The notes under the pieces are model-generated. The model did no database searches. It had not been told where the DNA came from and was given only the letters and a program-made list of their open reading frames with translations. DNA of 64,000 nt from Podarcis pityusensis. Lineage: Eukaryota. Below, in pieces: positions 3,101-32,601 of this stretch (positions within the stretch are counted from its first letter, which is position 1; every line of letters begins with the position of its first letter). The position numbers and the translations under genes are program-made. The DNA is taken from assembly GCA_964106645.2 (NCBI GenBank), contig OZ067048.1; one strand, written 5' to 3'.

Positions 3101-6100
3101 CGCGTGAGCACACCCCCCAGGTGCCACACACTCCCATGCAGGGCACTCCATACTCACAGGCTGCCCAGAAGAGAAAGAAAGAGAGAGGAGAGAGAAGAGA
3201 AAGGGGGTGAGCAGGGAGGAGGAGGAGGAGGCTGCTGGGGGGGCAAAGGGCCCCCGCCCCGAGATCCAGCCTCCGCCACGCAGGGTACAGGGCAGAGGGA
3301 GGCACACGCACTCACCACCAGCACGTGCTCCAGCAGCTCCAGGTAACCGTTGGCACACTCCTTGCCAAAGCGCAGCGCCCGCTGCCGAACCTCCGCGTTG
3401 GCCTCTGGGTGGTAGGCAGCCTCCTGCAAAAGCCCCACAGGTGAGAAACAGCCTAATGCAGGAGCCTGGCAGGGTGGTGCCAGGGCTGGGGCACTGGGCA
3501 CAGGTTTGCTGGGCACAGGAGAGAAGCATCCAGAGCCACGCTGGGTCCGGAGAGCCCCTCTGGCTTAGCAGCTCTTCCAAGATCCTGGCCGAGCCTCCTT
3601 TGAATTGTAGAATTGTGGAATTGGCAGGGTTGACACATGTCTGGTTTCTCCAGACAGGTCTTCTTTTTGGGGTGCAACATCTCAGTCTGGGCGGATTTTT
3701 TGAATTTGCCAAAATGTCTGGGTTCTTGCAAACAGAGCCAGGAAGTGTGCGTGCGAGGATCACTCTTAACCTTTTCCTATTTCTACAGTGCGCCTGCATG
3801 GTGCATTTGGGGACTGGGCTCGTCATCAAACAGCAGGTCGGTCCTAGACCTCTCTGAGCTGTTGGCCATACTGGTGCCCAGGAAGCCGCCCCTGGGCAGG
3901 CGGGAAAAACTCCCTGAAGGAGGGTCTCTGCTGGCACCTTCTTGCTCTGGCTCCCCTTCCCCACCCCAGGGCCTTGTCCATTGATTGCAATGAAGCCAAC
4001 TCTATTTTGCAATATCAGAAAGATCTAAGAAAAGAAACAGAGCGCTGGCAAGTAAAGAGGACCCCCCCCCCCGCTCTCTCTGTCCTAATTAAAAGCTTTG
4101 GGGGGCATTTGGAGATGAACCAAATCACCTTGGGTACCTCTAAACACAATTCTTGAATGTAAGTTAAAATACACAGCTCTCATGGAAGACCAGGGAAAGC
4201 CCCCCTCCCCATTTTTGTGTGTGGGGTGTGTGCCCTATTTTATACATCTCAAAATCTTAGCAGACTGAAGAACCTAGAAAAGAAAGTGCTGGGGGTTGGG
4301 GGGGGGAGAGTGGAGGAAATGGCGGAAGCACTGGGCACCCCATTTCCCCCCTAAAAGTTTGCTCCTTTCCTTTGGTCACCGTTCTGCTTGGATCTTCATA
4401 TTGTATTTCTTCTTGCCCTTATGTGACCCCCAAACCAAGGAGATAAGTGACTATACAACCTTTAGAAGGCATCTGAAGGCAGCCCTGTGCAGGGAAGATT
4501 ATAAATGTTCCATGTTTTATTATGTTTTTGTGTATGTTGGAAGCCACCCAGAGTGGCTGGGGCAACCCAGTTGGGTGGGCGAGGTATAAATAATAAAATT
4601 ATTATTATTGAAGATGATGTCCCTATTTTCAATGGAGAAATGTTTGAGGGCACAATGTGCCCAGTGTGTGCGTGCCATGGAAGGTGCGGGGGCTCCATGT
4701 CCTCTTTTTCGCTCTTTAAAATAAGGCAACCCTATTCTAGTCCAACCCTCAGAAATTCAGGATTCGCACCTGGAGCCTCGTAAATGCACTGCCCCCATCC
4801 TCCGATGACTGTCCAAGGGGGTCCTGTGAGCTTGCCCCACCTGTTTCCAAGGATGTCCCCCTTCAGCTCCCCCCACCGTGAGCATGCCCCTCCGCTTCCC
4901 ACCTTGCAAGAGCGCAGCATGTCGGCAATGGCGCGGCGGCTCAGGTTGGCCGTGGCGATCACGTCCTCCTGCCGGCACGAGTTGCCAGCTGCCACAGCCT
5001 TGGCAGTCGCCATGGTGATGCCTTTGGTCATGCGGATGAAGTCCTCCGGCGTTGAGGTCTTGGCGGGCGGCACCTGGGAGCAGAAGACCTGCGGGGGACG
5101 GGAGGTGGTCAGCCTGGCCGGGAGAGGAGGTAGAGGGTGGGGCAGAGCAAGGGGGCAGCAGCCCCAGCCCCCCTCCCGCCAACGCACTCACCGCAAGCTC
5201 CTGGCGGATGTGCTCAATTGTGGCTTCCAGCGCTCGGGTCCCCTTGGTGGCTTCGTCCTCCACGGCCTTCACCGTCTTCAGCAGCGACGTGACGTTGGTG
5301 ACCATCACCTGCCAAGCAGAAAAGGGTGACCTTTGGAGGGGGGGGAGGAAGAGGGCTCCCTGCTCCCTACAGCCCTAGGGGAACTTCCTCCCTTGGGTGG
5401 CCATAGAATCTAAGCATTGCAGAGGGGGAAGGGACCCCTGGGGGTCATCCAGTACAACCCCTACCATGTCACAACCAAATCATCCCTGAGAGGTGGAAGC
5501 TCTGCTTAAAAAACCCCAAGGAAGGAGAGCCCACCCCCTTCTGAGGAGCCTGCTTTCCCTACACACCCCACTCTGCCCCACACACGTGCCCATGAGCTGC
5601 TGCAGAGTCTCCCACCTTGGCTGAGTTCTTCAGCTGGTAAACGGCCGGGTCATCGCCAGACTTGCCCGCGGCAGCCTTGGTGGCGCTGATCAGGTCCCCA
5701 AGGGCCTTGGCCACGTCCTTCACGGCATTGATCAAGACCACCTGAGCGCAGAGAGGAGAGGAGGAGGACATGAGCAGAGCCTGCAGCTGGATCAGGCCCA
5801 AGGGGGTCCCCCCACGGGAAGCCAGCAAGCAGGATTCGAGAGCAAGAGCCGTCAGATGGTCAACGGAAGGACAGACCCAAGGAGAGGGGTGACCCAGCCA
5901 TTGTGGCCCTTACCTGCGTCTCGGGGTCCTCCGAGCCCAGGCTGGCGGCCCCCAGCTTCACCACCTCGGAGAGGCGTGTGATGGTGGCCACAGAGGACTG
6001 GGCAGCCTGTGCCAGCTTCTCCTGGCTGGCCGTGGCGTTCTGCACCAGCACCTTGGTGTCCTCCACCAGCGCCTTGGCCGTCTTCAGGATGCCCTCCCTG

Positions 6101-9100
6101 CCAAAGAAATGGGGTGGGAGGGGTTAGGAGGTGGCCAGGAATTCTGGAAGGCCTGTTGGAGGCCACATGGGAACCGCTGGGGGCCACTACCTGTGGTCGG
6201 CAAAGGTCTCTGCGTTTTCGCGGTTGAGGGTCCCGGCTGTGGCAAACATGATGGTGGTGTCCAGATCCGCGATGATGCCAGAGACAGCGCTGGCCGCTGT
6301 GATGCAGGCCTGGGTTCCCCGGTTGCCTGCCTGGAGGGCGGCCAAGACGTGCGACACCTGCGGAGGGAGACAGGACAGCTGGCCTCCCATCGGCACTGGG
6401 CTGACCCCCAGCACGGTCCCAGGAGAAGATCCCAGGGGGAGGAGACAATGCAGGCGTGTGTTGGTGTGGGAAAATGTTAGGAGGGGATCTGCTGGATCCG
6501 GCCAGTGGTCCCTCTAGCCCAGCATCCTGTTCCCACAGTGGCCGACCAAAGGGAAACCAGTAAGCAGGATCTGAGCACGAGAGCCACTCGTTTCCAGCCA
6601 CTGCTGCCTCCAACCTCCGAGGGGAGAGCCCAGCCAGCAGAACCAGCTCCTCTGCCCAGAGGCCACTGGGTGCTGGTGTCACTGGGCCCTGGCCTCCCTC
6701 CCCCCCCCAGCCCAGGCAGGCAGGCACCTTCTCGGAGACCCTGCGGGCGCACTCAATCAGCTCCTTCTTGGTGTAGGTGTCGCTGGGGCTGCACTGGAGG
6801 GCTCCCGCCTTCGTCACCAGCGCCGCACAGCCGTGGCCCAACTCCTGTACCCGGTTCTTTATGTGGGAGCCAATCTGGAGGGGAAAGAAGGCTGTGGGAG
6901 CCTGGCTGCGTGGCGCTCATCTTCTGCCCACACCTCCGTGTGCGGCTGCTGCTTCTCTCCACCAGCCCCACCTGACCTCCAACCACCCCTTTCCCCATTC
7001 CAGCCGCCAGAGGCAACAAGGTCCTTCTCAGCCTTCTGGGTTCAGGAAGAGCAAGAAGAACCCAACGTTTGATGCCCTGCCAGCCTGAGGCTCACAGCTC
7101 TGGGCAAATCAACCAGCTCCCCACCACATCCCTGCCCCACTGCCCAACCACCAGGGACGTCCCCCCCCCTCACCTCATCATTCTCAGCCGTGATGGCAGC
7201 CGGCTTAGCCTGGAGCGCCAGCTGTCCGTAGTCGCTGGTGAGCTGGTTGGCCAAGGTGCCCAGTTCGTCCGGGTTGGTGGTGGATTTGGTGACCTGGAAG
7301 AGGGTAGGGGCAGTTGAAGGGGGAAGAAGAGAGAGGCACCCCCAAATCCTGGCAGAAGGCAGTCTGGCCAGGAGGCGGAAGGAAGAGGGGGGGTTCTCAA
7401 AGGGGCCTGGCCCAGATCCCCCCACGGAGGCCTCCCCCACAACACCCCCAATGCCTCACCATCTCCTGGACGGTCACAGCGATGGCCTTGGCGGTCTTCA
7501 CCATGGTGGTCTGGTAGTCCACAAAGGTCCCCTCTGGCTCTCCCACGGGGCCCTCATCCAGCTGGGCGGGAAGAAAGAGAAACATCTCCTTTCAGAGGAC
7601 ACCAAGGCTGCCTCTGACCCCCAAGCGGCTGAGCTCCGCTGCTGGCCCTGGAAGCACCCTGGCCTCTGCTGCCTCTGCAGTAGGAGGCCCACCCCTGGAC
7701 CCAAGAGGCACCCAAGAAGCTCCCAACGCCTTTCTGGAGACAACCCTGTGGGGGGAGGGAACTTCCTGGGGAAGCCCGGCAGGGAGTGCCGTATAAATCC
7801 AAGGTGGTGGGTTGGAACAAAGGCACCAGGAATTTCAACGTAAAAGGGAGCAGACGTGGTCTGATTACTTGTTCCATGTCCAAAGTGGAAATGAATCCAG
7901 CAAACACAACCGACTTCTGGGGAGAGGAAAGGGCAGATTGATCTCTTTCTGATTGATCTCTGCTGACAGATCATTACGTGGTGATTGACAGCAATCAGAT
8001 AGAAGGTCTGGTGATCAAATCACTCTGCGTTAAAGTCACGCAAATGCTCTGACCAAGGCTGTTTGAGCCAAGGAACTGACATCATGTTCAAACGCCACAT
8101 AATAATCCTTTATGGGTATAAGATCTGCATCTTCTCTTTTTTAAACATTTATGGGACAAGATAATCTGTAACTTAAAGAGATTTCTCTGTCTACTGATGA
8201 AATTTCACAATTGGAAAGAGCTGCTTTCCGTCTTTAAGAAGAAGAGAAGGAAAACTGGTTAAGTGTCCAAGGCAGAGCAAAAAGCCTGATTTATGGTTGA
8301 CAATAAAGATTAAACATATGAGGGAATTCCTCATGTGAAAAATCAATATTTGTTTTTCTTTCAAAAGAAGAAACTGGGAACTGAAAGAAAGATGGCCATT
8401 ATTTCCTGTGTGGGAAAAGATTATTGTAGTGACAGTGATCTTAAGGTGGAAATCTTAGAGTCGGGAATTATGAAAAGATTGAGTTGTTAATAACATCAAA
8501 AACATCCAAAGTATCCAGTTTGGCAAATATATCTTTGGCTTCCCCAGTGACTGTTGGTATTATTCGGCAGTTGATGGCTGAACAATTAGAAATGATCAGA
8601 TTGCTGAGAGCATTTGCAGATGACTTAGTATTGACGTTACAGGAGCCAGAATCTAGTACTAAAAGGGTTTTAGAATTAATTAGAATTAATTCAAGAATTT
8701 GGTCAAGTGGCAGGATTTAAATTGAACAAGCTAAAAACTAAGGTTTTAGAGAAAAATTTAACACCGATTGAAAGAGAGAGGTTTCAGAATGAGACAGGCC
8801 TGACTGTGGTTAAGAAAGTGAAATACCTGGGGATTAATATGGCAGCCAAAAATGGGAACTTATTTAAAGATAATTATGAAAAATGTTGGACGGAAGTGAA
8901 AAAAGATTTAGAAATCTGGTCAAATTTGAAGCTTTCACTGTTGGGTCGTATTGCTGTGATAAAAATGAATGTATTGCCTAGAATGTTGTTTTTGTTTCAG
9001 ACATTGCAAATTGTGGACAAGATGGACTGTTTCAAGAAGTGGCAGAGAGATATTTCTAGATTTGTCTGAAAAGACTATTTACAGAAATATTGTAAAATTA

Positions 9101-12100
9101 ATGAATGATAGAATGATGTTGGATAGTAATTAAGCGGTTTCCAGCTATAATGTTCTAAGAGAATATGAAAAAAGGGTTATAAATGGGTTAAAATCTAATG
9201 GTAAGGATTTGCTGAACCAATAAATTGAAGTGGAATACAAAAAAGGGAGGTACGAGGAGGTCCGGGAAACAAGCTAAAGGAAAATAAGTAATAGAAAATA
9301 TGTGTGTTTTTAACTGTTTTTATTTTTTCTTTTTCATTTTTCTTTTTCATTTTCACTGTAATATTTCAAAAAACTTTAATAAATATCTTATAAAAAAATT
9401 TAGAAATGATCAGATTGATGTTTCATGAAAAGGGAAAAGAAAAAGAATCAGAGAGATATGAAATGAAAAATGGAACCGGAGATTAGATTTCAGACAAAAT
9501 CGATGAAAAGTTGGTAAGACTGGAGAAAGCAGGTGGTGAAATGGAAATGCCTTTCATCTGGGGGCTTGGAGGAAAAGGGAAAGATAAAATAATAAATGGA
9601 AAGATAGATATGAATGAAAAAACACAGTTGACAATGACTAATAATAATAATAATTTGGAAACCCCTCTTGGATTTTCGTGGGAAAAAGAAATGAATGATT
9701 TTGAGACACGTGGACTCAGAATAAATATTACTGCACAGAAAGTGGAGAAGATGGATGTTATCATGGACAGAATGTCTTAAATAACATTTTTTATGTAACT
9801 GGTGGATGGAAAATTGGAGGTCCTTTTTATCTTTTTTAATTGTATCTTTCCGCTTTCTCTCTCTTTTCCTTTGCTTTCCTTTTTCTCTCTCTTTCCTTTC
9901 TTCCTGTTTCTTTCTTTCTTGTTCTGGTAGCTGTTTTCATTTCTGCTTTTATTTATGTTAGTTTTCTATATCTTACCATATTACGAAATCTTCAAATAAA
10001 AATCTTAATGTGAATGCAGCAAACACAATCAGGATTTGCTTTTGCTACTCTTTTAGTCTGCAAATGATACACAATTGATAACATTCCCCCTAATCTTCAA
10101 CTGTAGTGTAATTAGGCAATTATGTAAAATTCCGCTACGGTGGAGTGGGACAAAGAACATTTTTGTGGGAAGCAGAAAACTGCAGCCGAAGAAACAGTCC
10201 TACGTGTGACGAGGAGGCGGGAACAGACCTCCCTGCCTTCTCCCCTCCCCTTTGGGGGGGCCCATTAAAATTCAAAGGGGGGGTTGCGCTCTGGGGAAGG
10301 AGTCGCACCTGGTTGATGGCTTGAGTGATGGAGTCCACCATGCCGCCAACCACGCCTGCTGCGCTGGCCGCCTCGTTCAGGGTGGCCGTCAGGTCCTCCA
10401 CGGCCTCCTTCATCATCTGCGCAGACTCCTCGAGGGCTTCCTGCGTGTGGGCTGCTTGCTGTGGGGGGAGAAGGCGATGCATCACCTGCTTGCTCAGAAG
10501 CGCCTCGCTGCTCATCATTCCCATCTGAGCAGACACTGGTGTGGCGCCCCCCACCTGCCCGGCAGGCCCCTCTGGGAACGGCAGAGCCAGCCTCCCTCTC
10601 CCTGCCCCAGAAGAAGAAGAGGAGTTTGGATTTGATATCCCGCCTTTCACTCCCCTTCAGGAGTCTCAAAGCGGCTCACATTCTCCTTTCCCTTCCTCCC
10701 CCACAACAAACACTCTGTGAGGTGAGTGGGGCTGAGAGACTTCAGAGAAGTGTGACTGGCCCAAGGTCACCCAGCAGCTGCAGGTGGAGGAGCGGAGACG
10801 CGAACCCGGTTCCCCAGATTACGAGACTACCGCTCTGAACCACTACACCACCCTGGCTGGCACCTTGGGGTTCCCTCCGGCCTCCTTGGCCGTGTAGAGC
10901 ATCTGCAGGGCCGACTCTGCCAGCGTCTTCGTCTGGTCCAGGAGGTTCATCTGCTGCTGGCTGTTGAGGGTCTTGGAGGCAGCCCCCACGGCCGCCAGAA
11001 CCAGCGGCTGAAAGTACTGAGCCAGCTGAGAGACCTGGAGGGAGAGAAGGGGCAGGTGAACGGGGGGGGGGGGGGAGCAGAATCCCAGTCTCCCTGGCAG
11101 GGGGCACACAGCGCCAGGGAGGCCAGCCCTCCTGCAGCTCCTGCCTTAGGCACCCTGGGCGCAGAAGAGGGCCACGTCTGAGAGAGGACACCCCTCAACA
11201 GCTTTTGCCGTGTGATTCAGTCACAATGAGCAAAACCTCAGCAGAAGAGGAGAACCGCAAGGAGGGAGGCAGAGGAGGAGGAGGGAGAGGCAAAGGGGCT
11301 GCTCTGGCACTTCCCTTCAGCAGCCTGAAGAGTCTGCCAGGAGAACCCCTGGAATGCCACTCTATGCCACAGGAGGGCAGGAGATCTCCCCAGTGAGCGC
11401 CAGGGGACAAGCACCCCTTCTGGACTGAGTTTGCTGCTTTGCTCATCAGCCTGGTTGCCATGGCATTGAAGGCAAAGCCTCAGGTACGCCAGAGACCCTG
11501 GAGAAGAGATCTCTGGCCACACCTAAGGCCTCGCCCTCAATGCCAGGGCAGCTGGACTGCCCTTCGCTCTCCCGCCCGCAGCTCCTTCCAGAATCCCAGG
11601 CCCACAGAAGTCCCCTCTCTGGCACCAGAGGTCCAAAGCCTCCCCTTTGCTTGCTGGTATTCTTCCTCACTCCAAATATGCCATCATCCCTCACAGGAAG
11701 AGCCCAAGCCAGGCCACTGCCCCCCCTGGCACAGGGCTTCCTGCACAGGCTGGCAGCAGTGGCTCTGCAGGGATTCAGGCAGGTGGGCTGCCAGTGGGGA
11801 TGGAAGCAGGAACCTTCTGCCTGCCCAGCAGCTGCTCTGGCCCTTCCCCACCAGCAACTCTCGTTAGGCAGCCCTTGGCTCTGCCTTCTTCCAGCACCCC
11901 CCCATCCCTGCCCCCCACCAGCCCCCCATCTTCTTACCTTGTGCCCCAGCTGGGAGGCCTCGGCTCGCGCTGCCCCAGCCACCGGCTCAATGAGGTTGTT
12001 GATCTCCTGGACGGCCGTGAGCATCTGGTTGTGCAAGGCCTGCGAGGGAGGGAGGGAGAGTTCCTGGCAGGCCCATTTGGGGAAGGGGGCACGAAGCCCA

Positions 12101-15100
12101 CCCGCCTGATGCCATGAGTGGGGAAGACCCAGCTGTTCAGAGTCAGAGCCCCACAGGTTCCCCCCTCCCCACAAACACTAGAGCCCAGCAATCCCCCTGG
12201 CCCACAGGGGCAGCTCCTGACTGGGAAGGTGTTGCAGGCACAGCAAAGGGACTGGGCAGGATTTGTCCCATGTGGGCTGTGGGCCTGTTTTTCACCAGTG
12301 AAAGGATGTTTCCTATTCCAATGACTGGTCTCCTGCCCACCGCTGGCATCCTGGATGGCGGCTAATAGATTGAGGTTGAATCCTGACAAGACAGAAGTAC
12401 TGTTTTTGGGTGACAGGAGGCAGGCAGATGTGGGGGACTCCCTGGTCCTGAATGGGGCAACTGTGCACCTGAAGGACCAGGTGCGCCACCTGAGAGTTAT
12501 TTTGGACTCACAGCTGTCCATGGAGGTCAATTCTGTGTCCTGGGCAGCTACCAGCTCCATGGTAGCTGGTACGCAGGCTGAGACCCCACGTGCCCGCAGT
12601 CTGCCCAGAGTGGTGCATGCTCTGGTTATCTCCTGCTTGGACTACTGCAATGCGACCTACGTGGGGCTACCTTTGAACGTGACCCGGAAACTGCAGTTAA
12701 TCCAGAATGCGGCAGCTAGACTGGTGACTGGGAGCAGCCACCGGGACCACATAACATCGGCCTTGAAAGACCTACATTGGCTCCCAGTACGTTTCTGAGC
12801 ACAATTCAAAGTGTTGGTGCTGAACTTTAAAGCCCTAAACGACCTCAGCCCAGTATACCTGAAGGAGCGTCTCCACCCCCATCGTTCTGCCTGGACACTG
12901 AGGTCCAGCTCCGAGGGCCTTCTGGTGGTTCTCTCCTTGCGAGAAGCGAGATTACAGGGAACCAGGCAGAGGGCCTTCTTGGTAATGAAACCCGCCCTGT
13001 GGAATGCCCTCCCATCAGATGACATCTGATGTCAGCCCTGTTTAGGAAAGTTTTTAATGACTGATGTTTTAATGTATTTTTAATATTTTGTTGGAAGCTG
13101 CCCAGAGTGGGGAAACGCGGCCAGATGGGTGGGGTATCAATAATAAATTATTATTACTCGCTCACTCACCTCCTGAGAAATGCCCTCGCGAGGTGCCAAC
13201 TGCTGGCTGATGGCGGCCAAGGACGCCTGGTCCACGTCCCGAATGCACTTGGTCAGCAGCTCAATGGCCTCGTCGCATTCCCGCTGGCCAGGAGCCTTGT
13301 CTCTGCCAGGAGGAGGGCAGACCATCAGCGTGGCTGAACCCACCAAACACCCAGAGCGGCCAACACCCTCCCCCTGGCACAGCCCTGGCAGCGCGGGAAG
13401 GCATGGCGGGCACCCGGCACCCCCACCCGGCAGCTGTGGGTCTCACCTCATGTTGGTGATGAGCTTCTTGATGGAATCGGAGACGGTCCGCGAGTGTCCG
13501 GCCAGCACTGACCACTTGGGTGGGTCCTTTGGGTTGACGGCCAGAGAGCGAGCTGTCTGGATGAGGCCGGCGGAGCTCTCCAGCATGGTCTTGGCAGAGG
13601 AGATGATGGGCTCCATGGCTCTGCGCCCCTGCAGGGGTGGGGGGAGCGCCAGGTGGTCAAGGGGAAGCTGGTGAGCAAGTGGGGGCACAGCTGGGGCTCT
13701 GAGAAGCCCCCCACCAAGTCTAACTCCCTGCTCCCCCGAAAAGGATGCTGCCCTTGGCAGCAGAGGAAATTACCCCCCACCAGGCCCTGACTGGGTCCTG
13801 CCCCCCGACTTACCTCTGGGCTGATCTGAGCAGGAACGGTGGCAAACTCTGGGTTGGAGGCAAAGGCGGTCAGGTTGTCCACGGCCTCAATGAGGGGGGA
13901 AGTGGCCTCGCGGCAGCGCTCCCGGTTCTCTGGGGTGAAAGCGCCGTCCAGAGCCTGCAGGGAAGGACAGAGGGACGGGCAGCACTGGCCTTTGGGCTTC
14001 CTCCCCACAGATTAAGCCCACGGCCCAAGAGGACGTGGGGCTGCCAGGGTGGACTCCCCACTCCAGCAGCTCCTCCAGGGACAGGATCCCCTGAGCTCCC
14101 CATGAGAAGGACCAGGCCCTTTGGGTCGAATCCTTCAGCTCCAGCCAGCGCCGCCCCTCCCCTGAATCTGCTTTTTGTCAGACGCCAAATACTTCTGGGA
14201 TTGCTCAGCCAGCAGCTCCGTTCCTGGCAGGCAAATCTACTGGCGCAGCGACAGAAATGAGCCTCCTTTGACGTCCAGCGGCTGCACCAGCAAATTGTCC
14301 AGCCTGGCTCTGAGGCTTTTCTCCTTCATTTTTGTGTTCATGAAGGTAATGATCTAATCTCTAATCACTAGTCCTCGTGTGAAGGACGAAGGACCACTTT
14401 CCACTCTGTATCACAGCCCCTAAGCCCGCTTTCAGAGCTCCGGCTCCTGGCTCAAGACCGGCTCCCCACGCCGCTTCACGGGCTGAACCCCAGAGACTGG
14501 AGCAGGGAGCCCTTGCTCTGCGTGGGGAAACAGGGGGAGCTTTCCCTTGGGAGCTGGTGGTGGCAGAGCAAGGCCAGGGAGGGGCTGCCTCACCAATGCT
14601 TGCCCTTGACCAGAGAAAAAAGGGGGGGGGGAGAGAGCTTGAGAAAGAGAAAGAGATGGGGTGGGGTGGGGGAGAGAAAACACAAAAGAAAGAGGGAAAG
14701 AAAGAGAGGGAGAAAAGAGAAAAAGATTTAAAGGGGAATAGAGAAAGAGAGAGAGAAAGAAAGGAGGGCTTCCCCCTTCCCAGGCTCATCACAGTGTCAT
14801 CCCACCCACGTGACCCGACACCTGTCAATCAAGTACCTTGATGGTCTTGACCAGGTTGGCGGTGCTGTTGGCCACCTCCTTGGCAGACTGGACAAACTGG
14901 CGCTTGGCCACTGGGTTGGCGGTGCGAGATGAGGCCAGCCGGCAGGTGTTGCAGAGGGCAGAGGTGTGCTTGGCCACGATGGTGGCGGCTGAGAGGACCT
15001 GCGGGAGGCAGCGGAGGGTCCTCCACGTTAGGCCACGGCAGGCGGACGGCAGCCAGGGAGGTGGGGGGCCTGCAAGTCCTCCTGCCTGGCCCCTGGAGAT

Positions 15101-21100: not shown

Positions 21101-24100
21101 CTCCTTCCACTGCCAGAAGCAGGACATGAAGTCGTGGTTCCTGAGTTGCCAGAGGGTGGTCTACAATTCTTTGACCCTGTTGCTGGGAACTCCAGGCGGG
21201 GAGCGTCACTGCTGCCGCCCTCAGGCCCTGCTGCTGGCTGGCCCCTGGGAAGAGGAGGCAGGGCTGGAGGGGCCTTATCCGGCTGCCAAGGCACAAGGGC
21301 AGAGGTCCAACAGGTAGGCCTGCGCCTGACCCCTCCACCTCGCTCCCCTGCCAGGCATCTGCCCAGCCCCTCCACTGACGCCACACCTTGGCTGCCTCCA
21401 CCATCTTGGCCGTGGCGTCGGCCAGGATCTTGGCCGCACTCAGCAGTTTGCGCGAGTTCTCCAGGTCCGTCTCCCCTTCGGCATCGGCCTTGATGGCGTT
21501 CACCAGGTCGGAGGTGGCTTGAGCCAGGATGCGGGCCTGACGCACCATTTCCCCTGGGGAGGAGAAGGAGGAGGAAAGAGGTGAGGGCCAGCCCCACAGA
21601 CGGACCCCGAGACGCCCTCAGCCATCCCTCCCGCCCACGTGGCCAGCCCCCCCCAGCCTCCGTGGCTGGGCCCCAAGGGGTCCCTCCCCCCAAGGCCCGC
21701 TCACCCGCATCCCCCATGGAGCTGAAGATGTTCTCCGTGACGTTGAGGATGGTGTCGGTGGCCTGGTCGTAGCGGCCGATGGGCTGCCCGCCCGTGGCAT
21801 GCTGCTTGATGTGCTCCAGCAGGTCGTTGAGGGCTTGTGTCACGGCCGTGGCTGCCACCCCCACCTGCTTCAGCAGCTGCTCGTCGCCCGTGGCCGCCTG
21901 CGACGCGTCCACACAGCTCTCCACCGACTTGGCCACCAGCTTGCCAGCTTCCACCAGCTGCTCCTGGCAGACGGGCGAGCTGATGGTGGGCGCCACCACC
22001 TGCCAAGGAGGAGGACGAATGGACAAGGCACAGGGCGGTCAGAGCAGTGGCCCAGCCTGCCCCAGCCCCACCAGCCCCACTTCCCACAGGGCTGAGAAAG
22101 CACCCTTTGGGGAGATGGCAGGGGCTGGCTTACGCTCCTCAAATGAGGGCCTTCTCCAAACGGAAGCCCAAACAGTGCCCTCCACCGAGGCAGGTGTTTT
22201 CTGGAAGAGGAACAACCAAGGCCAGCTGCTGCCCCAGACCCTGAGCAGGGCCAGGGTGCCAGGGGTGGGTGCTCAGGGCCTGCCACTCACCTTGGTGCAA
22301 GCCACCAGCTGGGAGGTGGAGAGGGCGCACTGCGTGGCGGCAGCAATGACCTGTGTCTGCAGCACCGAGTCCTCCGTCTTCTGGGCCACGTTCTTGGCTT
22401 TCAGTACCAAGGCGGCAGCGGCACTGGCCACGGCCTTCGCCAGCTGCATCAGCATGTCCTGTCGGGGGGGGGAGGAGGAAGAGGTGGCATCGGCTGGTTG
22501 CGCTCATGAAACATTCAGCAGGGAAACCCGAGCTGGGCAAGGAGGGCCCTTCCAGGCTCTCCTGGCGCAGGTGAGATCATCCTTCTTCCGCCTCTGCCAG
22601 CACAAACCTCACCCCTCCGTGCTCCTGCGGCACTCAGCCCCCCCCCCCAGACACCCCCCCCAACCACACCCTCTCTGGCCTCAATCACAGGCGCAGAGAG
22701 CACCGCGCACCAAACCCGTCACCAAGAGGAAGCGCCCACAGCCCCCCACCGCAAGGACCGGGAGGGGGGAGAGAAGATGCTCGGATTCCCCTGCTGCCAA
22801 AGCAGCCAAGACCCCACATGGGGCGCTGGGGGCAGAAGGAGCCTCCAGGCCGCCTGCCCTGATGCAGGCCCAGCGCCGAGAGGCTGGCAGGGTTCCCTGG
22901 CATCTGTGCAGGGAACAGGCAGCGCCAGCTGCTCTTCCAACAGAGGTCCCTGCTGACTTTGCTACCATGCCATGTGGCGGAGAGTCCCACAGGCAGCCTC
23001 CTGGGGGTCCTGCCAAATCTTGGCCTACGCGGACCCTCTGGCCGGTGATCTTGGGGGCTTCCTGGCTTGTGGGTCAGAGCCATCCCACCAACTGGAGGGG
23101 CCGAGGCTCCTGCAACAGGGGGAGCCGAGCATGAGCCAGCGAGAGCAAGAGCTTGCCCCAAGCCCCTTGGCCAGCGAGCCCCACTGATTGGCAGCAGCGC
23201 AGAGGAGGGCTCTGCCCCAGAGAGCACAGCCCCTGCTGGGCTCAGGCCCTTTACCGTCTTGGGGTCAGGGGCGGACAGGGTCCGAGGGCGCCGGCTCTCC
23301 ACCATCTGCACACGAATCCACAAGACAAGAGAGGTTACTGGGCCCAAGCGCCACCCCCCTGCCCATCCTGTGCCAGAGGGCAGGTGGCCTGCGCCAGGCT
23401 GTCCCCCGCCAGGTGTGCCCCAGAGGACTCCCGCTTGCCACTCACCTGGAAATGGGGGTCGGCGTCGCTCTCCCCGATCTGCTGCAGCAGTTCCCCACTC
23501 GTCTGCCCCACGGCGCCTGCAGCTTGCAAAAGGTTCTGCCGCGGCTGGAGGAGGAAAGGGCTGGAGGTTAGGGGCGGCCCCTGAAGGCAACCCACAAGAC
23601 CTAAACCCGAACAGGCAGACCCTCGTGGTAAAGTCCCCTTTGTCCAGCTGGGAATGGCTGTCACAGAAAGTGGGCAGAGTTGGGTGCCTGTCGCATCTCT
23701 AGAGGAACGCTGTCCCTCAGAATAGGGGCAGCCACACGGAAGGCTCCGCTCAGAGTTAATGTGGAGGTTTCTGGGGTCCATGGAGGCTCGATGGAGAATC
23801 ACAGCATCATAGAGTTGGAAGGGACCCCAGGGTCATCTAGTCCAACCCCCTGCAGAGGGCAGGGCTCTCCTGGGTGTAGGAGGGTCAAGGCGGCCTCTCA
23901 ACACATTAACCATGACATGTTGGCTGAGAACCTTTCGGCGCTGCCAGGCTTCTGAAGACATTTGCAAAAAATGTTTTCTGTAGAAGTTAACTGAGCTGTG
24001 GTTTTAGATGTTGCTGTGATTTTAATGTGCATATATGGAGTCACAAAGAGTCGGACACGACTAAACAACTAAACAACTAAACAACAACAAACCGTATTTT

Positions 24101-27100
24101 TTCGTGTATAACACGCCTCCGTGCATAAGACGCCCCCTCTTTTTTGGGACTCCAAATTGAGAAAATGGGGGGAGATTGCCCAGACTTGATGACCTTTTTT
24201 AGGGGGGGGGGGATTTGCTGAAAATTGCTCACCTGCAGGACTGCCACTGCCAATTGCACACATATCAATGAAGCCATCAATCGTATGCATGCTTGCCGAA
24301 AGCAAGTGCCAATCGCCCGCACACTTGCCCCAGCAGCCAATAGCCAGCGGACCTTGCTGCAACCACCTACCCCCCGCAAAAACGCCGCTGACAATCTACT
24401 GCTCATGGCAGCCACCAATTGCCCGTCCCACCTCTCCACTCTCTGTGTATAAGACGACCCTAAATTTTAAGCATAATTTTAAAATAAAATAACCTCATCT
24501 TATACACGGAAAAATACGTTATGTTTTGAAACCACTTTGATCTTTTTTTAAAAAAACGAGATTGCGTGATTCAAGTATAAAATCACAGGCCTGCAGAGTG
24601 GGAGGGGACCCAAAGGGTTGCCTAATGCAAGCCCTGCAAGGCAGGAATTGCACGGAAGAGGAGCTTTTCCTTGGACCCAAGCGGCCAGGCTCACCTCTGC
24701 GCTGGAGGGCTGCGCGGTCTTCAGCAGCTCTGAGACGGCCCCTGCCAGGTTCTTGGCCGCCTGCAGGAGCTGCCTGCCGTTGCCCCCCTCGTCCTCCATG
24801 AGGGCGGCCAGCAGCTTGACCCCCTTGGACATCTCTGTCAGGTTGGAGGAGATGGTGGTGACGGCGCAGCCCACGGCCGTGTAGTCCGTCTCGGCCGGGT
24901 CGCCCGCCGTCAGGTTAACCACGGAAGCCGTGCCGGCCGTGATGGCATCCACCTGGGAGTGGATCTCGTGCTTCGACTCATCCATCTTGTTCTTGCGCCA
25001 GGCTTTGGAGGCCTGGGGGGGGGAAGAAAAGGGGGCCGTTATTCCAGGACTCCACAGGGGAGGCTCCCCCCTGGAGGGTGCCCAGTCGCCCCCAAGGGCC
25101 CCTTCCCTTGGCCGGCCCCACTCACCGCGTCCTGCCCCATGGGGGGCAGCGTGTCAAAGTCCTCCAGGTTGGACTGGGCAGCATGGACCGCCTGCATGCT
25201 GGAGAGGATGGTGCCTGTCAAGGCCTGCTGGGCCGAGGTCTGCAAGGAGGAGAAGGAGAAGAAGAAGAAGGGGGCACAGCCTGGCCCTCTCCTGGAGCCC
25301 AAGGGCCCCTGAAAGGAGGGGGGCAAGCAGAGAGGCCTGGGTGGGGAGGGGCACCCGTGGGCTGCCATGTGGGTGGGGCTACATAAGCACCACTCCCAGG
25401 GCCCTCAGCTCCTGAAGGTAACAGGCCCCTTTCTATGTCCAGCTGTCCTTTGTCAACAACAAATTGTTGCTGTTTTTTGTGTTGAATATATGCTATATGG
25501 TCATTTATGGACCTAATAGGTATCTCAAGCCATTTGCACATAACAATATATGTGTTTTATCCAAGTAATTGTTGAACCGAAGTACAATTAAAAGATGTAC
25601 ATTAATTGCGAAATAGAATTAAAAAGAAGTATATTAATAGTGAAATAGTTATTAAGCTCTAACTTAAAATGATTTTTTAATCATAACAAACTTAATAATG
25701 CAAACACATTGGCATTTGGCAATAACAAAAGGTCCTTTAGAAACACAATTTACAAAGACTCATAATCTAGTCTCTAGGAACTTGCTATAATATGAAAAAA
25801 TAATAGGTGTAAATATATGATGCAAACTACGAATAATTATAAATATCAGAATGTAGGCCTACTATATATAGAAAGGAGCAAAGCAGGGATATTTGAGGGA
25901 GCAGGCTAGCAGGTGGGGCCCATGATTTACATCATAGGAGCCTACACAACACAAAACCTGGTATGTAGGTTTTATTTCATTTGTTTTTTATCTTATATTT
26001 TGGAAATGGACATCCAGGTTTTTTTCTTTAATTTTTGGGGGGGCCCCAAGAGAGTGGGGCGCTAAGCTATAGCTTGTTTAGCTTATATGTAAATCCAGCC
26101 CTGACCACTCCCCAGCAGCAGCCACGGGTGCAAACAGGCCCAAAGGGAAGAGGACTCTGTGAATCATTGATGTGTAGAGGTAGACAGGACCCCTTGCGGT
26201 CATCTAGCCCAACCCCCTGCAAGGCAGGAATTAAAGCATCCCAGAGGGACGGCCACTCAATGCTCTTTGTGCTTCTTCTCCCTCCCACCCCAACCATGGA
26301 TGATGTGCATGGGAGCGGAGGGGAGAGCGAAGGGCTCCTTACCAGGGGGGGCATGTGCCCACGGTGCATCTGCCCGCTGGTGATCTGCTGCTGGGCCTGG
26401 GGCATGGTGCCCATCTTGAAGTTCTCTGGCCCGCCGGCGCCCAGGCGGATGATGCCCGGCAGGGCCAGGGAGCCCGTCTCAGCCTTGTTGACCTGGTTGA
26501 ACTGCTGCTGGAGGACAGTGGACCTGCGAGGCAAGCGGAGGGAGGGAGGAGAGAAGAAGCACCCCCACTCCGGGCAGCGGCAGCCCCCCCCCCCGTCCCC
26601 CTCTCCCTCCAGACTTACTTTTTGGGGGAGACGGACTCCTCCAGCATGGTCGATTCCTCGTCCCCCTCCAAGCCAAAGTGGTCTTTGCTCTTTTTCTGTA
26701 GGGCAGAGAAGGGAGCAGGCAATGACTCCGCCATCCACAGATCAAGGCGGCCATGGGGCACAGGGCGCAGAAGAGCCTCCCAGCACCGCCAGGGCAAGGC
26801 AGCCCATCCTCCTGGTGGGGGACATCCTTCCCCTCGGCCGGCACCCTGCAATGCCAGCGTGGCCTTGCCCTCCCGCCCGCCCAGGCAGACGCCATGCCTG
26901 AGGTGGGCGCCCCTCTCCCTGCCTCCCCACAGCCTCACCTTCTTCAGGATGATGTCAATGTAGCCGGCAATGAGCTGGGCAATCTGCTCCCCCTCCGTCG
27001 TCTGGACAGAGTAGTAGCCGTCCTGGTAATCCCCAAAGTCCTGCAAGAGGAAAGGAAAAAGATATCTCTCTCTCTCTCCCCACTCCCCCCGGCCACTGTA

Positions 27101-30100: not shown

Positions 30101-32601
30101 GAGGCCACTCGCTTCTGCGCGGCACCCTGTGACTCGGTTTCCCCTGGCGCTCCGCTGCGAGGCCCACACCAAGCGGGCAGAGACCGGCAGGGGGCACTTA
30201 CTCCAAGAATCCCGGCTTGTGCTTCTGCTCATTGTGGGGGCCAAACTGGATCTGGCACTGGAATCCCGCAAATTCGCAGGCCTTGTCGAAGGAGACGGGG
30301 TGGGAGCCGTTCAGGATGTCGTCACGGGCCTGGAGAAGGGGGCGGGGGCACAGGGAAGTCATTCTCCTGAATTAATTCACAGTTCATTCATAGCTCCTTA
30401 ATGGGCCCTTCCCTCACACCCTCTCCCCAAGGATTTTGGGCTGGGGGGGAGGAGAGACCTGCTGCCCACTCCACCAACCCAACCTTCATGGCACCTGCCA
30501 GGTGTACCTTGGGGGTTATTTATTTTATTTCACAAAATTTATACAATGCTTGATTGTAAAAAAACACACCCAACAACCTCAAAGCAGTTAATAAAAAGAT
30601 AAAACATTAAAACTGAGTTCAAAGCGTACAGAAAGTAAAAATACTACAACAGGTTGGAACTCACTTCTACTTTCTAAGCATTCGGGGGGTGGGTCTACAC
30701 AAGAATGTTTTTAGCAAGCACCAAAACGTGCAAAGCAAAGGCACCTGCTTGATATCAAGAGGCAGGGAGTTCCAGAGGGCAGGTGCTGCCACACTAAACG
30801 ATCGAATGCTTACAAACGCAGAAAGTGGGGCTTATGTGGCATCTATGGCAGGGCCCGTCCCCCGAGCGGCCGCATGTGGGGTGAGGGGTTTCATAGGTAA
30901 ACTGGGGTTAGGATAAAGCCTGAGACTTGCAGGGTTGTGTGAAGGGAACAGTACCTGCACATAGAGCAGGTTGAGTTGCACAGGATCCCGCGAGTCCACG
31001 TTTTGGTCCGAGTAAAAGAACTTCCGTCGCAGGAGGAGGGTCTCGCTGTCATCGATGCCCTGCTCTCGGAGGGTGCGCCCGTGGTCCAGCCAGTTCACTG
31101 TTGGGGCACAGAGAACATTGGGAGGGGAAGCAGGGGGAAGGAGAGAGACCCCCCACTCTTTGCTCCTGGGTCCTTGTGGGTCGTACCCCCACCCCACCGA
31201 CTTACACTCATCGTCCGTGTGGAGTTTCTGCTTGAGCTTCTCCATCTTCTTCTCATCCCGCAGGAGCGTCTTGTCCTTCTTGAGGGTCCCCGTCTGCTCC
31301 TCCTTCTTCTCCTCCACAATTTCGCGCACCAGGGAGTACTCGTCGTAGTTCGTGATGCCTGCCGGGCGAGGAGACCCCCCCATGTCAAGAAGGTGGGTGG
31401 GGAGAGAGAGGTCAGCCCTGCCAGACTGGGAGACATCCCCAGTGAAGGGCCTCCCTCTTGCCTTCTGCAGAGCAAGACAACGTCTCCACCCCCATCGTTC
31501 TGCCCAGATGCTAAGGCCCAGCTCCGAGGGCCTTCTGGCAGTTCCCTCCCTGCAAGAAGTGAAGCTACAGGGAACCAGGCAGAGGGCCTTCTCGGTGGTG
31601 GCACCTGCCCTGTGGAATGCCCTCCCACCAGATGTCAAAGAGAACAACAACTACCAGACTTTTAGACTACCAGATGGGCATGGTATAAATAAATAAATAA
31701 ATAAATCATCATCATCATCATCATCTCTGTGTCAGGGGGAGCTAGAGACCTCTCTCCCTCCCTAGATCAAGACCCCCCCCCCCACTCACCGATTCTGGCG
31801 CAAATGGTCATGAGTATGTCTGTGACCGTCTTGGAGTCGTCCACCATGACCGTCTTGACCGTCCCGTCCAGCATCCGGATCTTCAGGGGCCTCTGCTTCT
31901 TCTTGTACTCCAAGGTGTCCTGGAATGTTGTAGGGGGGCATCAGAGAGGGCCGGAGGAGAGCAGTTGGGGGGGCACCGAGTGGGGGGGAGGGGAGGGGAA
32001 AGAGGGGGCCATGCAAAGGAGGAGATGCCCGCCTGGCAAGCGAGGGGGCGGCCAGGGGACAACCCTGGCAGGGAAGGGGGGACGCACCCCATTGCGGAGC
32101 ATGTAGTAGTCCAGGGCCTTCCCAGCTTCCAGCCAGATGCCTTTCTTGGGATCTTCGTCCGACAGGAAGAGGCCAAAGTCGGTGGCTGGAAAAGAGCAGG
32201 AAAGACTCTCCCAGGACAGGCCAAAGGGCAGGCCCAGAGGCTGCAGACGGAGGTCTAGGCAGGGCTTTGGGGAGGCCCAGCCCCCCCAGCCCCCCTGTGC
32301 TTGGGCCTGAGGACCTGCCTCTGCAGATGTCCCCCACTCCCCGCCTTTCTTCATCAGAAGGGCAGGCCCCCCTCTCTTGCCTGATGTGAAGAGATGCAGC
32401 TGAGAAGACATTCAATGCCCCCCCAATAATCAGCTGCTCCAGCCTACCCAACCCCCCTGCCCCCGACTTACGCTGGCCCATCTGCGCCTCCGGAACTCGC
32501 TCCCGGATCATGCGGCAGGCGTCGTACACCATGGTGGACGGCTCAAACTGCATCGTCTTCACCACGTTGCCAATGCTGATCTTGAGGGATAAGGCAACCA
32601 T
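53..32601 (-). CDS. TLN1: Talin-1, multi-exon CDS (2395 codons in window; 3' end beyond position 1)
   Basis: Spliced translation MVALSLKISIGNVVKTMQFEPSTMVYDACRMIRER...VGAIPANALDDGQWSQGLISA matches the talin-1 FERM head and rod. Perfect Kozak GCCGCCACCATGG, compact introns, head-to-head with CREB3 as in mammals. Confidence 0.98.
264..618. mobile_element. Tc1/mariner (Tigger-like) MITE nested in a LINE 3' fragment (about 181-860, minus strand)
   Basis: TIRs CAGTGGTGCC(C/T)CGCAAGACGAA, TA TSD on both sides; host reads CPALYKDLRNEITTPLL... on the minus strand. Confidence 0.85.
904..1029 (-). CDS. TLN1: TLN1 exon 53 (I/LWEQ domain)
   Basis: QADESLNFEEQILEAAKSI...LVAQGK; 126 nt. Confidence 0.97.
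1259..1383 (-). CDS. TLN1: TLN1 exon 52
   Basis: GTEWVDPEDPTVIAENELLG...PRAKPK; 125 nt. Confidence 0.97.
1556..1661 (-). CDS. TLN1: TLN1 exon 51
   Basis: ILQKPSHDLKQQLAAYSKRVAGSVTELIQAAEAMK; 106 nt. Confidence 0.97.
2110..2651. mobile_element. Solo LTR (542 bp)
   Basis: TGTCA...TGACA termini, perfect 5-bp TSD CCTCT, AGTAAA signal at 2521. Confidence 0.8.
3316..3423 (-). CDS. TLN1: TLN1 exon 50
   Basis: EAAYHPEANAEVRQRALRFGKECANGYLELLEHVLV; 108 nt. Confidence 0.96.
4435..4608 (+). mobile_element. L2-type LINE 3' fragment
   Basis: Same tail (GAAGCC..CCCAGAGTGGCTGGGG..(TAT)n) as the 12350-13155 copy. Confidence 0.7.
4903..5088 (-). CDS. TLN1: TLN1 exon 49
   Basis: VFCSQVPPAKTSTPEDFIRMTKG...MLRSCK; 186 nt. 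Confidence 0.97.
5192..5308 (-). CDS. TLN1: TLN1 exon 48
   Basis: VMVTNVTSLLKTVKAVEDEATKG...RQELA; 117 nt. Confidence 0.97.
5616..5741 (-). CDS. TLN1: TLN1 exon 47
   Basis: VVLINAVKDVAKALGDL...QLKNSAK; 126 nt. Confidence 0.97.
5914..6097 (-). CDS. TLN1: TLN1 exon 46
   Basis: EGILKTAKALVEDTK...SEDPETQ; 184 nt. Confidence 0.97.
6191..6357 (-). CDS. TLN1: TLN1 exon 45
   Basis: VSHVLAALQAGNRGTQAC...ETFADHR; 167 nt. Confidence 0.97.
6728..6874 (-). CDS. TLN1: TLN1 exon 44
   Basis: IGSHIKNRVQELGHGC...ARRVSEK; 147 nt. Confidence 0.97.
7174..7293 (-). CDS. TLN1: TLN1 exon 43
   Basis: VTKSTTNPDELGTLANQLTSDYG...AENDE; 120 nt. Confidence 0.97.
7460..7561 (-). CDS. TLN1: TLN1 exon 42
   Basis: LDEGPVGEPEGTFVDYQTTMVKTAKAIAVTVQEM; 102 nt. 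Confidence 0.97.
8604..9399 (+). mobile_element. L1-type LINE, 5'-truncated with internal deletion
   Basis: RT motifs AFADDL and KYLGI, KMNVLPRMLFLFQ; AATAAA plus A tail; 18-bp TSD TTAGAAATGATCAGATTG (8586-8603 and 9400-9417). Confidence 0.88.
10309..10458 (-). CDS. TLN1: TLN1 exon 41
   Basis: QAAHTQEALEESAQMM...ITQAINQ; 150 nt. Confidence 0.97.
10612..10857 (-). mobile_element. tRNA-derived SINE (Squam3-like) with (CTT)n tail
   Basis: Near-identical to the copy at 36574-36828; tRNA-like A/B-box head. Confidence 0.85.
10864..11034 (-). CDS. TLN1: TLN1 exon 40
   Basis: VSQLAQYFQPLVLAA...KEAGGNPK; 171 nt. Confidence 0.97.
11938..12039 (-). CDS. TLN1: TLN1 exon 39
   Basis: ALHNQMLTAVQEINNLIEPVAGAARAEASQLGHK; 102 nt. 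Confidence 0.97.
12350..13155 (+). mobile_element. L2-type LINE 3' fragment
   Basis: WMAANRLRLNPDKTEVL...LDYCNA...LQLIQNAAARL...LHWLPV (RT C-terminus), (TAT)n tail. Confidence 0.9.
13170..13302 (-). CDS. TLN1: TLN1 exon 38
   Basis: DKAPGQRECDEAIELL...REGISQE; 133 nt. Confidence 0.96.
13447..13628 (-). CDS. TLN1: TLN1 exon 37
   Basis: GRRAMEPIISSAKTML...KKLITNMR; 182 nt. Confidence 0.97.
13814..13954 (-). CDS. TLN1: TLN1 exon 36
   Basis: ALDGAFTPENRERC...PAQISPE; 141 nt. Confidence 0.97.
14837..14998 (-). CDS. TLN1: TLN1 exon 35
   Basis: VLSAATIVAKHTSALCN...NLVKTIK; 162 nt. Confidence 0.97.
15400..15543 (-). CDS. TLN1: TLN1 exon 34
   Basis: AAYLVGVSDPNSQAGQQGLVDP...CTQSQ; 144 nt. Confidence 0.97.
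15664..15786 (-). CDS. TLN1: TLN1 exon 33
   Basis: VLGEAMAGISQNAK...GFTEAAAQ; 123 nt. Confidence 0.97.
15921..16010 (-). CDS. TLN1: TLN1 exon 32
   Basis: TVRELLENPTQAVNDMSYFNCLDSVMENSK; 90 nt. Confidence 0.97.
16144..16237 (-). CDS. TLN1: TLN1 exon 31
   Basis: AVTDSINQLITMCTQQAPGQKECDNALRELE; 94 nt. Confidence 0.97.
16395..16534 (-). CDS. TLN1: TLN1 exon 30
   Basis: SREAQAQVVSNLKSISMSSSKLLLAAK...QLAAAAR; 140 nt. Confidence 0.96.
17028..17225 (-). CDS. TLN1: TLN1 exon 29
   Basis: FPPSGKNFQEAQSHLNQ...EMAGQSP; 198 nt. Confidence 0.96.
18113..18232 (-). CDS. TLN1: TLN1 exon 28
   Basis: VAKAVSQALNRCVNCLPGQRDVD...LLADS; 120 nt. Confidence 0.96.
18318..18526 (-). CDS. TLN1: TLN1 exon 27
   Basis: GIAARDVAHALRSL...PESQQRLAQ; 209 nt. 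Confidence 0.96.
18758..18860 (-). CDS. TLN1: TLN1 exon 26
   Basis: MEKSAQDLGNSTKAVSSAIAQLLGEVAQGNENYT; 103 nt. Confidence 0.96.
18965..19093 (-). CDS. TLN1: TLN1 exon 25
   Basis: AQEACGPLEIDSALS...KPLPGET; 129 nt. Confidence 0.96.
19342..19476 (-). CDS. TLN1: TLN1 exon 24
   Basis: PGGKMVAAAKATVPTISDQ...RTAAQK; 135 nt. Confidence 0.97.
19608..19721 (-). CDS. TLN1: TLN1 exon 23
   Basis: VVADQIPMLVQGVRGSQ...SQNFLQ; 114 nt. Confidence 0.97.
19915..20075 (-). mobile_element. L2-type LINE tail
   Basis: Reverse complement of the same L2 3' end. Confidence 0.65.
20390..20503 (-). CDS. TLN1: TLN1 exon 22
   Basis: HAAKQAAAAATQTIAAAQH...QLVQSCK; 114 nt. Confidence 0.96.
20622..20750 (-). CDS. TLN1: TLN1 exon 21
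   Basis: GAAAHPDSEEQQQRLREAAEGLRMATNAAAQNAIKKKLVHRLE; 129 nt. Confidence 0.97.
21387..21553 (-). CDS. TLN1: TLN1 exon 20
   Basis: GEMVRQARILAQATSDL...KMVEAAK; 167 nt. Confidence 0.97.
21705..21999 (-). CDS. TLN1: TLN1 exon 19
   Basis: VVAPTISSPVCQEQL...NIFSSMGDA; 295 nt. Confidence 0.97.
22291..22458 (-). CDS. TLN1: TLN1 exon 18
   Basis: DMLMQLAKAVASAAAALVLKAK...SQLVACTK; 168 nt. Confidence 0.97.
23255..23305 (-). CDS. TLN1: TLN1 alternative cassette exon 17b-like (17 aa)
   Basis: tgtgcag|ATG...ACG|gtaaag; 51 nt, phase 0-0, MVESRRPRTLSAPDPKT after Gln665. Confidence 0.75.
23446..23544 (-). CDS. TLN1: TLN1 exon 17
   Basis: PRQNLLQAAGAVGQTSGELLQQIGESDADPHFQ; 99 nt, ends at codon 665. Confidence 0.96.
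24035..24090 (+). mobile_element. BovB (RTE) LINE 3' tail
   Basis: GTCACAAAGAGTCGGACACGACTAAAC...(AAC)n. Confidence 0.75.
24092..24519. mobile_element. Mariner/pogo-type MITE
   Basis: TIRs CGTATTTTTTCGTGTATAA / TTATACACGGAAAAATACG. Confidence 0.75.
24695..25012 (-). CDS. TLN1: TLN1 exon 15/16 (single fused exon)
   Basis: ASKAWRKNKMDESKHEI...NLTAGDPAETDY...AQPSSAE; 318 nt uninterrupted. Confidence 0.96.
25126..25239 (-). CDS. TLN1: TLN1 exon 14
   Basis: TSAQQALTGTILSSMQAV...PPMGQDA; 114 nt. Confidence 0.96.
25397..26103. mobile_element. hAT non-autonomous element
   Basis: CAGGGC...GCCCTG termini, perfect 8-bp TSD ACCACTCC. Confidence 0.85.
26343..26523 (-). CDS. TLN1: TLN1 exon 13 (head-rod linker)
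   Basis: STVLQQQFNQ...GQMHRGHMPPL; 181 nt. Confidence 0.96.
26619..26695 (-). CDS. TLN1: TLN1 exon 12
   Basis: KKSKDHFGLEGDEESTMLEESVSPK; 77 nt. Confidence 0.96.
26939..27040 (-). CDS. TLN1: TLN1 exon 11
   Basis: DFGDYQDGYYSVQTTEGEQIAQLIAGYIDIILKK; 102 nt. Confidence 0.97.
27401..28065 (+). mobile_element. Probable ERV solo LTR
   Basis: TGTT...AACA termini, TATA-like TTTAAAAA about 27881, AATAAA at 27941; TSD imperfect. Confidence 0.55.
28640..28797 (-). mobile_element. L2-type LINE fragment
   Basis: CAGGGCTGCCTTCAGATGTCTTCTAAAAG...GAGAAGGCCCT shared with other L2 copies. Confidence 0.7.
29031..29186 (-). CDS. TLN1: TLN1 exon 10 (F3)
   Basis: EKMKGKNKLVPRLLGITKE...WAASPKSFTL; 156 nt. Confidence 0.97.
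29437..29541 (-). CDS. TLN1: TLN1 exon 9
   Basis: AHKNCGNMSEIEAKVRYVKLARSLKTYGVSFFLVK; 105 nt. Confidence 0.97.
29841..29901 (-). CDS. TLN1: TLN1 exon 8
   Basis: LKDFLPKEYIKQKGERKIFM; 61 nt. Confidence 0.96.
30202..30329 (-). CDS. TLN1: TLN1 exon 7
   Basis: ARDDILNGSHPVSFDKACEFAGFQCQIQFG...KPGFL; 128 nt. Confidence 0.97.
30955..31097 (-). CDS. TLN1: TLN1 exon 6
   Basis: NWLDHGRTLREQG...LNLLYVQ; 143 nt. Confidence 0.97.
31206..31358 (-). CDS. TLN1: TLN1 exon 5
   Basis: GITNYDEYSLVRE...KLHTDDE; 153 nt. Confidence 0.97.
31478..31725 (+). mobile_element. L2-type LINE 3' fragment
   Basis: RLHPHRSA..LRPSSEGLL...[19 protein letters not shown]. Confidence 0.85.
31790..31919 (-). CDS. TLN1: TLN1 exon 4
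   Basis: DTLEYKKKQRPLKIRMLDGTVK...CARI; 130 nt. Confidence 0.97.
32088..32185 (-). CDS. TLN1: TLN1 exon 3
   Basis: PTDFGLFLSDEDPKKGIWLEAGKALDYYMLRNG; 98 nt. Confidence 0.97.
32472..32601 (-). CDS. TLN1: TLN1 exon 2 coding part (exon starts 32635), F0 domain
   Basis: MVALSLKISIG...EAQMGQ; 130 nt; AG/GT. Confidence 0.97.

Follow-up and report, generated by a model that had tools for sequence, protein, structure and literature searches.

Identification of an optional talin-1 exon

The 64-kb stretch of DNA analysed here (the window) contains lacertid TLN1, the gene for talin-1, and within it a 51-nt exon (23255..23305, reverse strand) that is optionally spliced in a close relative. This exon is very probably the lizard counterpart of human TLN1 exon 17b, its product being a predicted loop between rod domains R1 and R2 that likely makes them open at lower force. 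As in human, the exon has 51 nt, is in frame, follows Gln665, is optional and encodes residues that are predicted to lengthen the R1-R2 linker by a disordered segment. The exon of the lizard is not new in itself, as it is already present in the automated RefSeq annotation of the closest lizards; what seems to be new in print is the evolutionary depth of exon 17b, found in all tetrapod classes and probably in bony fishes, together with a pattern in which length is kept rather than sequence.

Human exon 17b was described by Gallego-Paez et al. in 2023 (PMC9997659; bioRxiv 10.1101/2022.09.06.506802), who cite Ensembl transcript ENST00000706939. According to the accessible part of their report, the insert shifted the unfolding peaks of R2 and R1 from ~15 and 25 pN to 13 and 21 pN, increased the binding of vinculin D1 and left RIAM binding unchanged, and was modelled as a longer linker with the first R2 helix one turn shorter. 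Inclusion was tissue-biased (skin, pancreas) and controlled by TGF-beta/SMAD3, and the exon was presented as a cancer-associated splice event (PMC9997659, same part); it was also reported in nasopharyngeal carcinoma (PMC13534237). The available text of PMC9997659 left undecided if the effect of the 17 residues is that of a binding motif or comes from destabilisation of R1R2 alone; its main text, to the same extent, contained neither 'conserved' nor 'vertebrate', and its comparison was limited to primates. In the portions of the papers at hand, conservation of exon 17b was mentioned for primates and 'mammals' only. In the literature covered, which includes few subscription papers and no cross-species splicing database, the exon was not found described for any animal other than mammals.

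Gene structure and position of the exon

A gene model was derived from the long isoform of Podarcis muralis placed on the window DNA, exon phases being taken from the spliced alignment starting at the ATG at position 32601. With the 51-nt segment included, TLN1 comprised 2391 stop-free codons and 52 introns, all of them bounded by GT-AG (52/52). The identity of the host gene was established by comparison of its translation with Lacerta agilis talin-1 X2 (2384 of 2391 residues identical, 7 differences) and P. muralis talin-1 X1 (2383 of 2391, 8 differences).

Exon 17b has ...gtgtgcAG on its 5' side and GTaaag on its 3' side, is in phase 0-0 and has the stop-free translation MVESRRPRTLSAPDPKT, 17 residues that insert in frame between Gln665 and Asp666. 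A stop-free AG/GT segment of this length and phase, placed after Gln665 (CDS 1995), had been pointed out by a first-pass annotation, and it was re-derived here from the window letters and the spliced alignment. The upstream exon (23446..23544, reverse strand), equivalent to human exon 17, ends with Gln665 at CDS nt 1995 in phase 0. An intron of 140 nt (23306..23445, reverse strand) separates it from exon 17b, and a second one of 796 nt (22459..23254, reverse strand) leads to the 168-nt equivalent of human exon 18 (22291..22458, reverse strand). The latter begins with Asp666, a position assigned to the first helix of R2 on the basis of the accessible text of PMC9997659. When exon 17b is not spliced in, exons 17 and 18 are separated by a single intron of 987 nt, the next constitutive exon starting at 22458.

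Some minor features of the gene were recorded along the way. The Gln665-ending exon is the 15th coding exon here and number 17 in human, and the exon at 25012-24695 measures 318 nt; it is possible that lizard TLN1 has one intron fewer than the human gene, if the latter has a single 5' non-coding exon. Repeat fragments occupy parts of the TLN1 introns (23795-23855, 24035-24200, 8100-9066 and 12325-13031), and read depth was very high over the intron repeats at 23.8 and 24.0 kb. Open frames near 8.7-9.1 kb and 12.3-13.0 kb resemble pieces of LINE reverse transcriptase.

Splicing evidence and chance level

Four of 24 listed sequencing runs were aligned to positions 21650-25100 of the window at 88% likeness. 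Run X23, of which 12% was used, consists of raw RNA-seq reads from a close relative differing by ~2% in exons. Both junctions proposed by the first-pass annotation were found there: three reads with three distinct starts joined exon 17 to exon 17b (23446->23305), and six reads with six distinct starts joined exon 17b to exon 18 (23255->22458). One further read skipped the exon, giving an inclusion of ~80% as estimated from 10 reads. Neighbouring constitutive junctions were covered by 4 and 2 reads, and all junction reads were on one strand, as expected for TLN1. Run X1 consists of contigs, presumed to be RNA by guess; one of them, spliced over four exons at a depth of 21.6, skipped exon 17b, so that inclusion differed between X23 and X1. 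An unspliced X1 contig (22918-23441, depth 6.2) ran across exon 17b and intron sequence and may represent pre-mRNA, intron retention or DNA. The other two of the four runs, X9 and X21, showed no junction in 21650-25100 and were uninformative.

The sequence pattern of exon 17b is by itself no better than chance. Its 987-nt intron held 60 frame-preserving, stop-free AG..GT candidates of 24-150 nt, three of them with a length of 51 nt, and the other 50 TLN1 introns held 34 candidates of 51 nt in 24,377 nt, that is, 1.4 per 987 nt. Splice sites were scored by matrices built from TLN1's own sites. By summed score, exon 17b ranked fourth among the 60 candidates of its intron, and none of the 34 segments of 51 nt from the other introns reached its strength at both sites. 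The acceptor of exon 17b, which is rich in G/U and has 10 pyrimidines in 17 positions, scored below all 51 other TLN1 acceptors, and its donor, ACG/GTAAAG, above only one of 51 others. Such weak sites are expected of a regulated exon, yet they fit a decoy too. A fortuitous intronic segment with the look of an exon would be in keeping with these weak sites and with the ~1.4 segments of 51 nt expected in an intron this large; junction reads at both edges of the exon, together with homologous tetrapod peptides at the identical position, refuted this explanation and leave it virtually no probability. It is the RNA junction reads and the conservation that place exon 17b above chance.

Sequence motifs were counted for ESRP, RBFOX and QKI. 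Neither TGCATG nor ACTAAY was found in the two introns flanking exon 17b. TGG occurred 9 times upstream of the exon (3.7 expected) and GGTG 7 times in the last 350 nt of the downstream intron (2.1 expected). Because these counts are post hoc and uncorrected, control of the lizard exon by ESRP, an epithelial splicing regulator, is a guess.

Distribution among tetrapods

The 17-residue peptide of the window was found letter for letter, and at the same site, in the long isoforms of L. agilis (XP_033020519.1) and P. muralis (XP_077792732.1), both being automated RefSeq models. A wider search made use of a bird talin region containing the insert, a query that favours 17-aa inserts. It matched 102 proteins and, with one frog protein added, an insert was present after Gln665 in 103 of 103. 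Its length was 17 aa in 100 of them, 16 aa in Eleutherodactylus, 18 aa in Geotrypetes and 13 aa in Chrysemys. The Chrysemys insert (P0221) was dropped as a probable mis-spliced model, as was Podarcis model P0206, in which the first 4 insert residues are altered. Among the insert-bearing tetrapod cluster members listed, 27 of 27 had 17 aa.

Squamates, turtles, crocodilians, birds and mammals have models with an insert at this site, and so do amphibians (16-18 aa); a comparison across clades had been suggested by the first-pass annotation. Long and short forms were present within one species in axolotl, Pleurodeles, Lissotriton, both alligators, Emydura, Paroedura, Eublepharis and Anolis, as well as in gar, salmon and tuna, and both isoforms were also modelled in mammals; all such isoforms are automated database models.

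For comparisons between clades, 46 tetrapod proteins were chosen by hand so as to represent most genera only once; 44 of them carried a 17-aa insert. Insert similarity exceeded that of jointly shuffled controls in all ten pairs of tetrapod clades (z 2.5-10.2, p 0.001-0.014, uncorrected), including squamates versus amphibians (z 3.8) and squamates versus mammals (z 4.1, p 0.001 with 1000 shuffles, the mammals being non-human). The earlier proposal of a counterpart to human exon 17b was therefore borne out by site, phase and length, and by the similarity of the peptide to non-human mammalian inserts. Sequence turnover was fast relative to the flanking exons. Median identity to the window peptide, out of 17 residues, was 13 in squamates, 10 in turtles and crocodilians, 9 in birds, 6 in mammals and 4 in amphibians, versus 97, 96, 96, 92 and 90% for the flanking exons in the same order; the lizard insert shares 4-6 of 17 residues with those of non-human mammals. 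Fairly conserved columns among the 44 inserts of 17 aa were Arg5 (40), Asp14 (34), Pro15 (35) and Thr17 (42).

Ray-finned fishes and age of the exon

Fishes were searched with a fish region that ends at the junction and is blind to the insert. The best 120 of 804 matches included 103 new proteins, of which 100 were parsed (P0306, P0326 and P0356 were left out, and P0249 as well). Among these parsed matches, 81 had no insert and 12 had a coherent basic insert of 19-22 aa directly after Gln665; the carriers among the matches listed were gar, eels, salmon, characins, catfishes, a silverside and a pipefish, and further carriers, tuna, shad, sardine and Dallia, came from the cluster members. The insert is optional, as illustrated by the long isoforms of gar (XP_015193083.1), Atlantic salmon (XP_045549606.1) and tuna (XP_044190548.1), short isoforms being modelled in the same species as long ones. 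In contrast with the lizard insert, the fish inserts, known from protein models, are longer, more basic (mean net charge +3.8) and almost devoid of proline. Seven UniRef-only inserts of 3-18 aa among the listed fish matches were unrelated and were set aside as probable mis-spliced models, and the inserts of P0583, P0061 and P0114 were also dropped as probable mis-splicing; most of the dropped inserts begin with Val, as read-through of a GT donor would give.

Homology between the fish and tetrapod inserts was borderline at the level of sequence. When the fish inserts were tested against each tetrapod clade, two of five pairs gave p<0.05, with z 2.2 for amphibians and 2.2 for turtles and crocodilians, and no similarity above shuffles was detected with squamates, birds or mammals (p 0.55, 0.33 and 0.19). 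In profile tests, 3 of 25 fell under 0.05 and 22 were not significant. The gar insert aligned ungapped with the amphibian profile over an Arg-Gly-Thr-Arg core (p=0.002, or ~0.05 with all 25 tests taken into account) and, with an identical offset, to turtles and crocodilians (p=0.03). An independent origin in fishes, with an exon dating only to the tetrapod ancestor, would account for the difference in length, for the many non-significant tests and for the absence of similarity to three of the five clades, and fishes do have other optional TLN1 exons. It would leave the exactly shared insertion point, the optional and basic nature of both inserts and the gar alignments to coincidence, and appears unlikely. 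Because of the identical insertion position and the borderline similarity, descent of both from the same ancestral exon seems a good deal more probable.

The first-pass annotation had placed the exon in the amniote ancestor or earlier. It is indeed ancient, and this estimate was an understatement: the amphibian inserts and the same-site insert of fishes indicate an exon older than amniotes, one that likely goes back to bony fishes. Constraint on length, claimed in the same annotation, held for tetrapods and did not extend to bony vertebrates as a whole, given the 19-22 aa of fishes. The single shark protein found (Rhincodon, P0111) and a frog short form had no insert, which is no evidence of absence at the gene level. 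Among the 50%-identity representatives, in which vertebrate talins were collapsed, no named isoform from shark, lungfish or coelacanth, nor one of TLN2, was found, and six distant talins carried unrelated inserts near the Gln665 site.

Predicted structure and functional implications

An AlphaFold2 model was built for Lacerta residues 481-809, insert included, from a 25-row alignment. Mean pLDDT was 85.6, falling below 50 over residues 658-681, and the bundles were otherwise confident; a 3-residue helix was placed at 662-664 and the R2 helix resumed at 680. The insert is thus predicted to be a disordered extension of the R1-R2 linker that shortens the first R2 helix and leaves both bundles folded, which matches the human model as described in the available text of PMC9997659. 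A search of PDB sequences returned 12 talin sequences, the best alignment (6R9T) being gapped at the insert.

A mechanism can be proposed on this basis. Inclusion of exon 17b would add 17 residues after Gln665, and these would form a floppy loop between R1 and R2. By analogy with the human isoform only, the loop would likely loosen R1-R2 and lower the opening force. Vinculin sites of lizard talin-1 may then be exposed at lower force, and inclusion in lizard may be tissue-biased, both as extrapolated from human. Selection would keep the site, the frame and, in tetrapods, the length of the insert more than its sequence. As position and length are fixed while sequence turns over fast, a mainly steric effect is probable and is favoured over a motif. 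Extended to the whole group, this suggests, tentatively and with somewhat less than even confidence, a splice-controlled mechanical dial inherited from the bony-vertebrate ancestor, in which the length and not the sequence of the insert sets R1-R2 opening.

Another possible explanation is that the insert is mainly a short linear motif, a phosphorylation or ligand site, the mechanical change being a side effect. The lacertid peptide contains RxRxxS and R-T-x-S-x-P, which match the Akt/RSK and 14-3-3 mode I consensus motifs. All 14 squamates had RxxS/T, as did 4 of 5 turtles and crocodilians, the four conserved columns listed above are compatible with a motif, and the human insert was reported as surface-exposed and possibly able to bind a ligand (PMC9997659, accessible part). 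However, RxRxxS/T occurred in 6 of 14 squamates, in none of the 32 other tetrapods and in 3 of 13 fishes, and R[ST]x[ST]xP in 6 of 14 squamates, 1 of 5 turtles and crocodilians and 0 of 27 birds, mammals and amphibians, among which RxxS/T itself occurred once. Across these 14 squamates, 32 other tetrapods and 13 fishes, no basophilic kinase or 14-3-3 motif was conserved, and the kinase sites put forward in the first-pass annotation find support only locally, in part of the squamates. Moreover, conservation of the first and last insert residues may reflect constraint on the splice sites and not on the protein. A motif as the main function is consequently improbable. Still less probable is a real but nearly neutral exon, a tolerated loop that stays in frame only since frameshifts are harmful. 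Its fast turnover compared with the flanks, the many entries without insert (81 of 100 parsed fish proteins among the matches listed) and a human force shift of just 2-4 pN would suit such neutrality, but the exon was kept in every tetrapod class sampled, in gar and in at least six teleost lineages, had a single length in 44 of 46 tetrapod inserts, was included in 9 of 10 junction reads of one lizard run and skipped in another, and is tissue-regulated in human (PMC9997659, same part).

Retention of the exon from fishes or amphibians to mammals, with a fixed position, a nearly fixed length and a sequence that changes fast, speaks for a role in normal physiology and for a steric effect. Its depth and the length-over-sequence pattern bear on the choice between binding motif and destabilisation, as posed in the available text of PMC9997659. 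Zebrafish, frog and chicken may serve as models for exon 17b, and a single construct can be given the natural inserts in turn, their variants constituting a ready test series for length as the dial. These data are of use mainly to talin specialists and will hold little surprise for most others.

Other optional segments in talin-1

A candidate 3-nt micro-exon, CCT (3160-3158, reverse strand), would add a Pro after Val2272 of the long isoform. It has a long pyrimidine tract and the donor GTGAGT, with TGCATG present at 3140, and isoform pairs differing by this Pro were present in Lacerta, Zootoca, chicken, alligator, gar, salmon, shad and Denticeps. The accessible part of PMC4317164 mentions that TLN1 of mammals has a conserved micro-exon of 3 nt, and the two may be the same. 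Models of Varanus, Paroedura and echidna have Gln1804 as an optional residue, probably as a result of tandem acceptors; the window acceptor at 10459 (CDS nt 5409) reads cacag/CAAGCA, a sequence in which the Gln1804 alternative is unavailable. Finally, two further optional inserts, after ...DPETQ and ...RAKPK, were present in fish talin-1 models P0283, P0285, P0291 and P0558.
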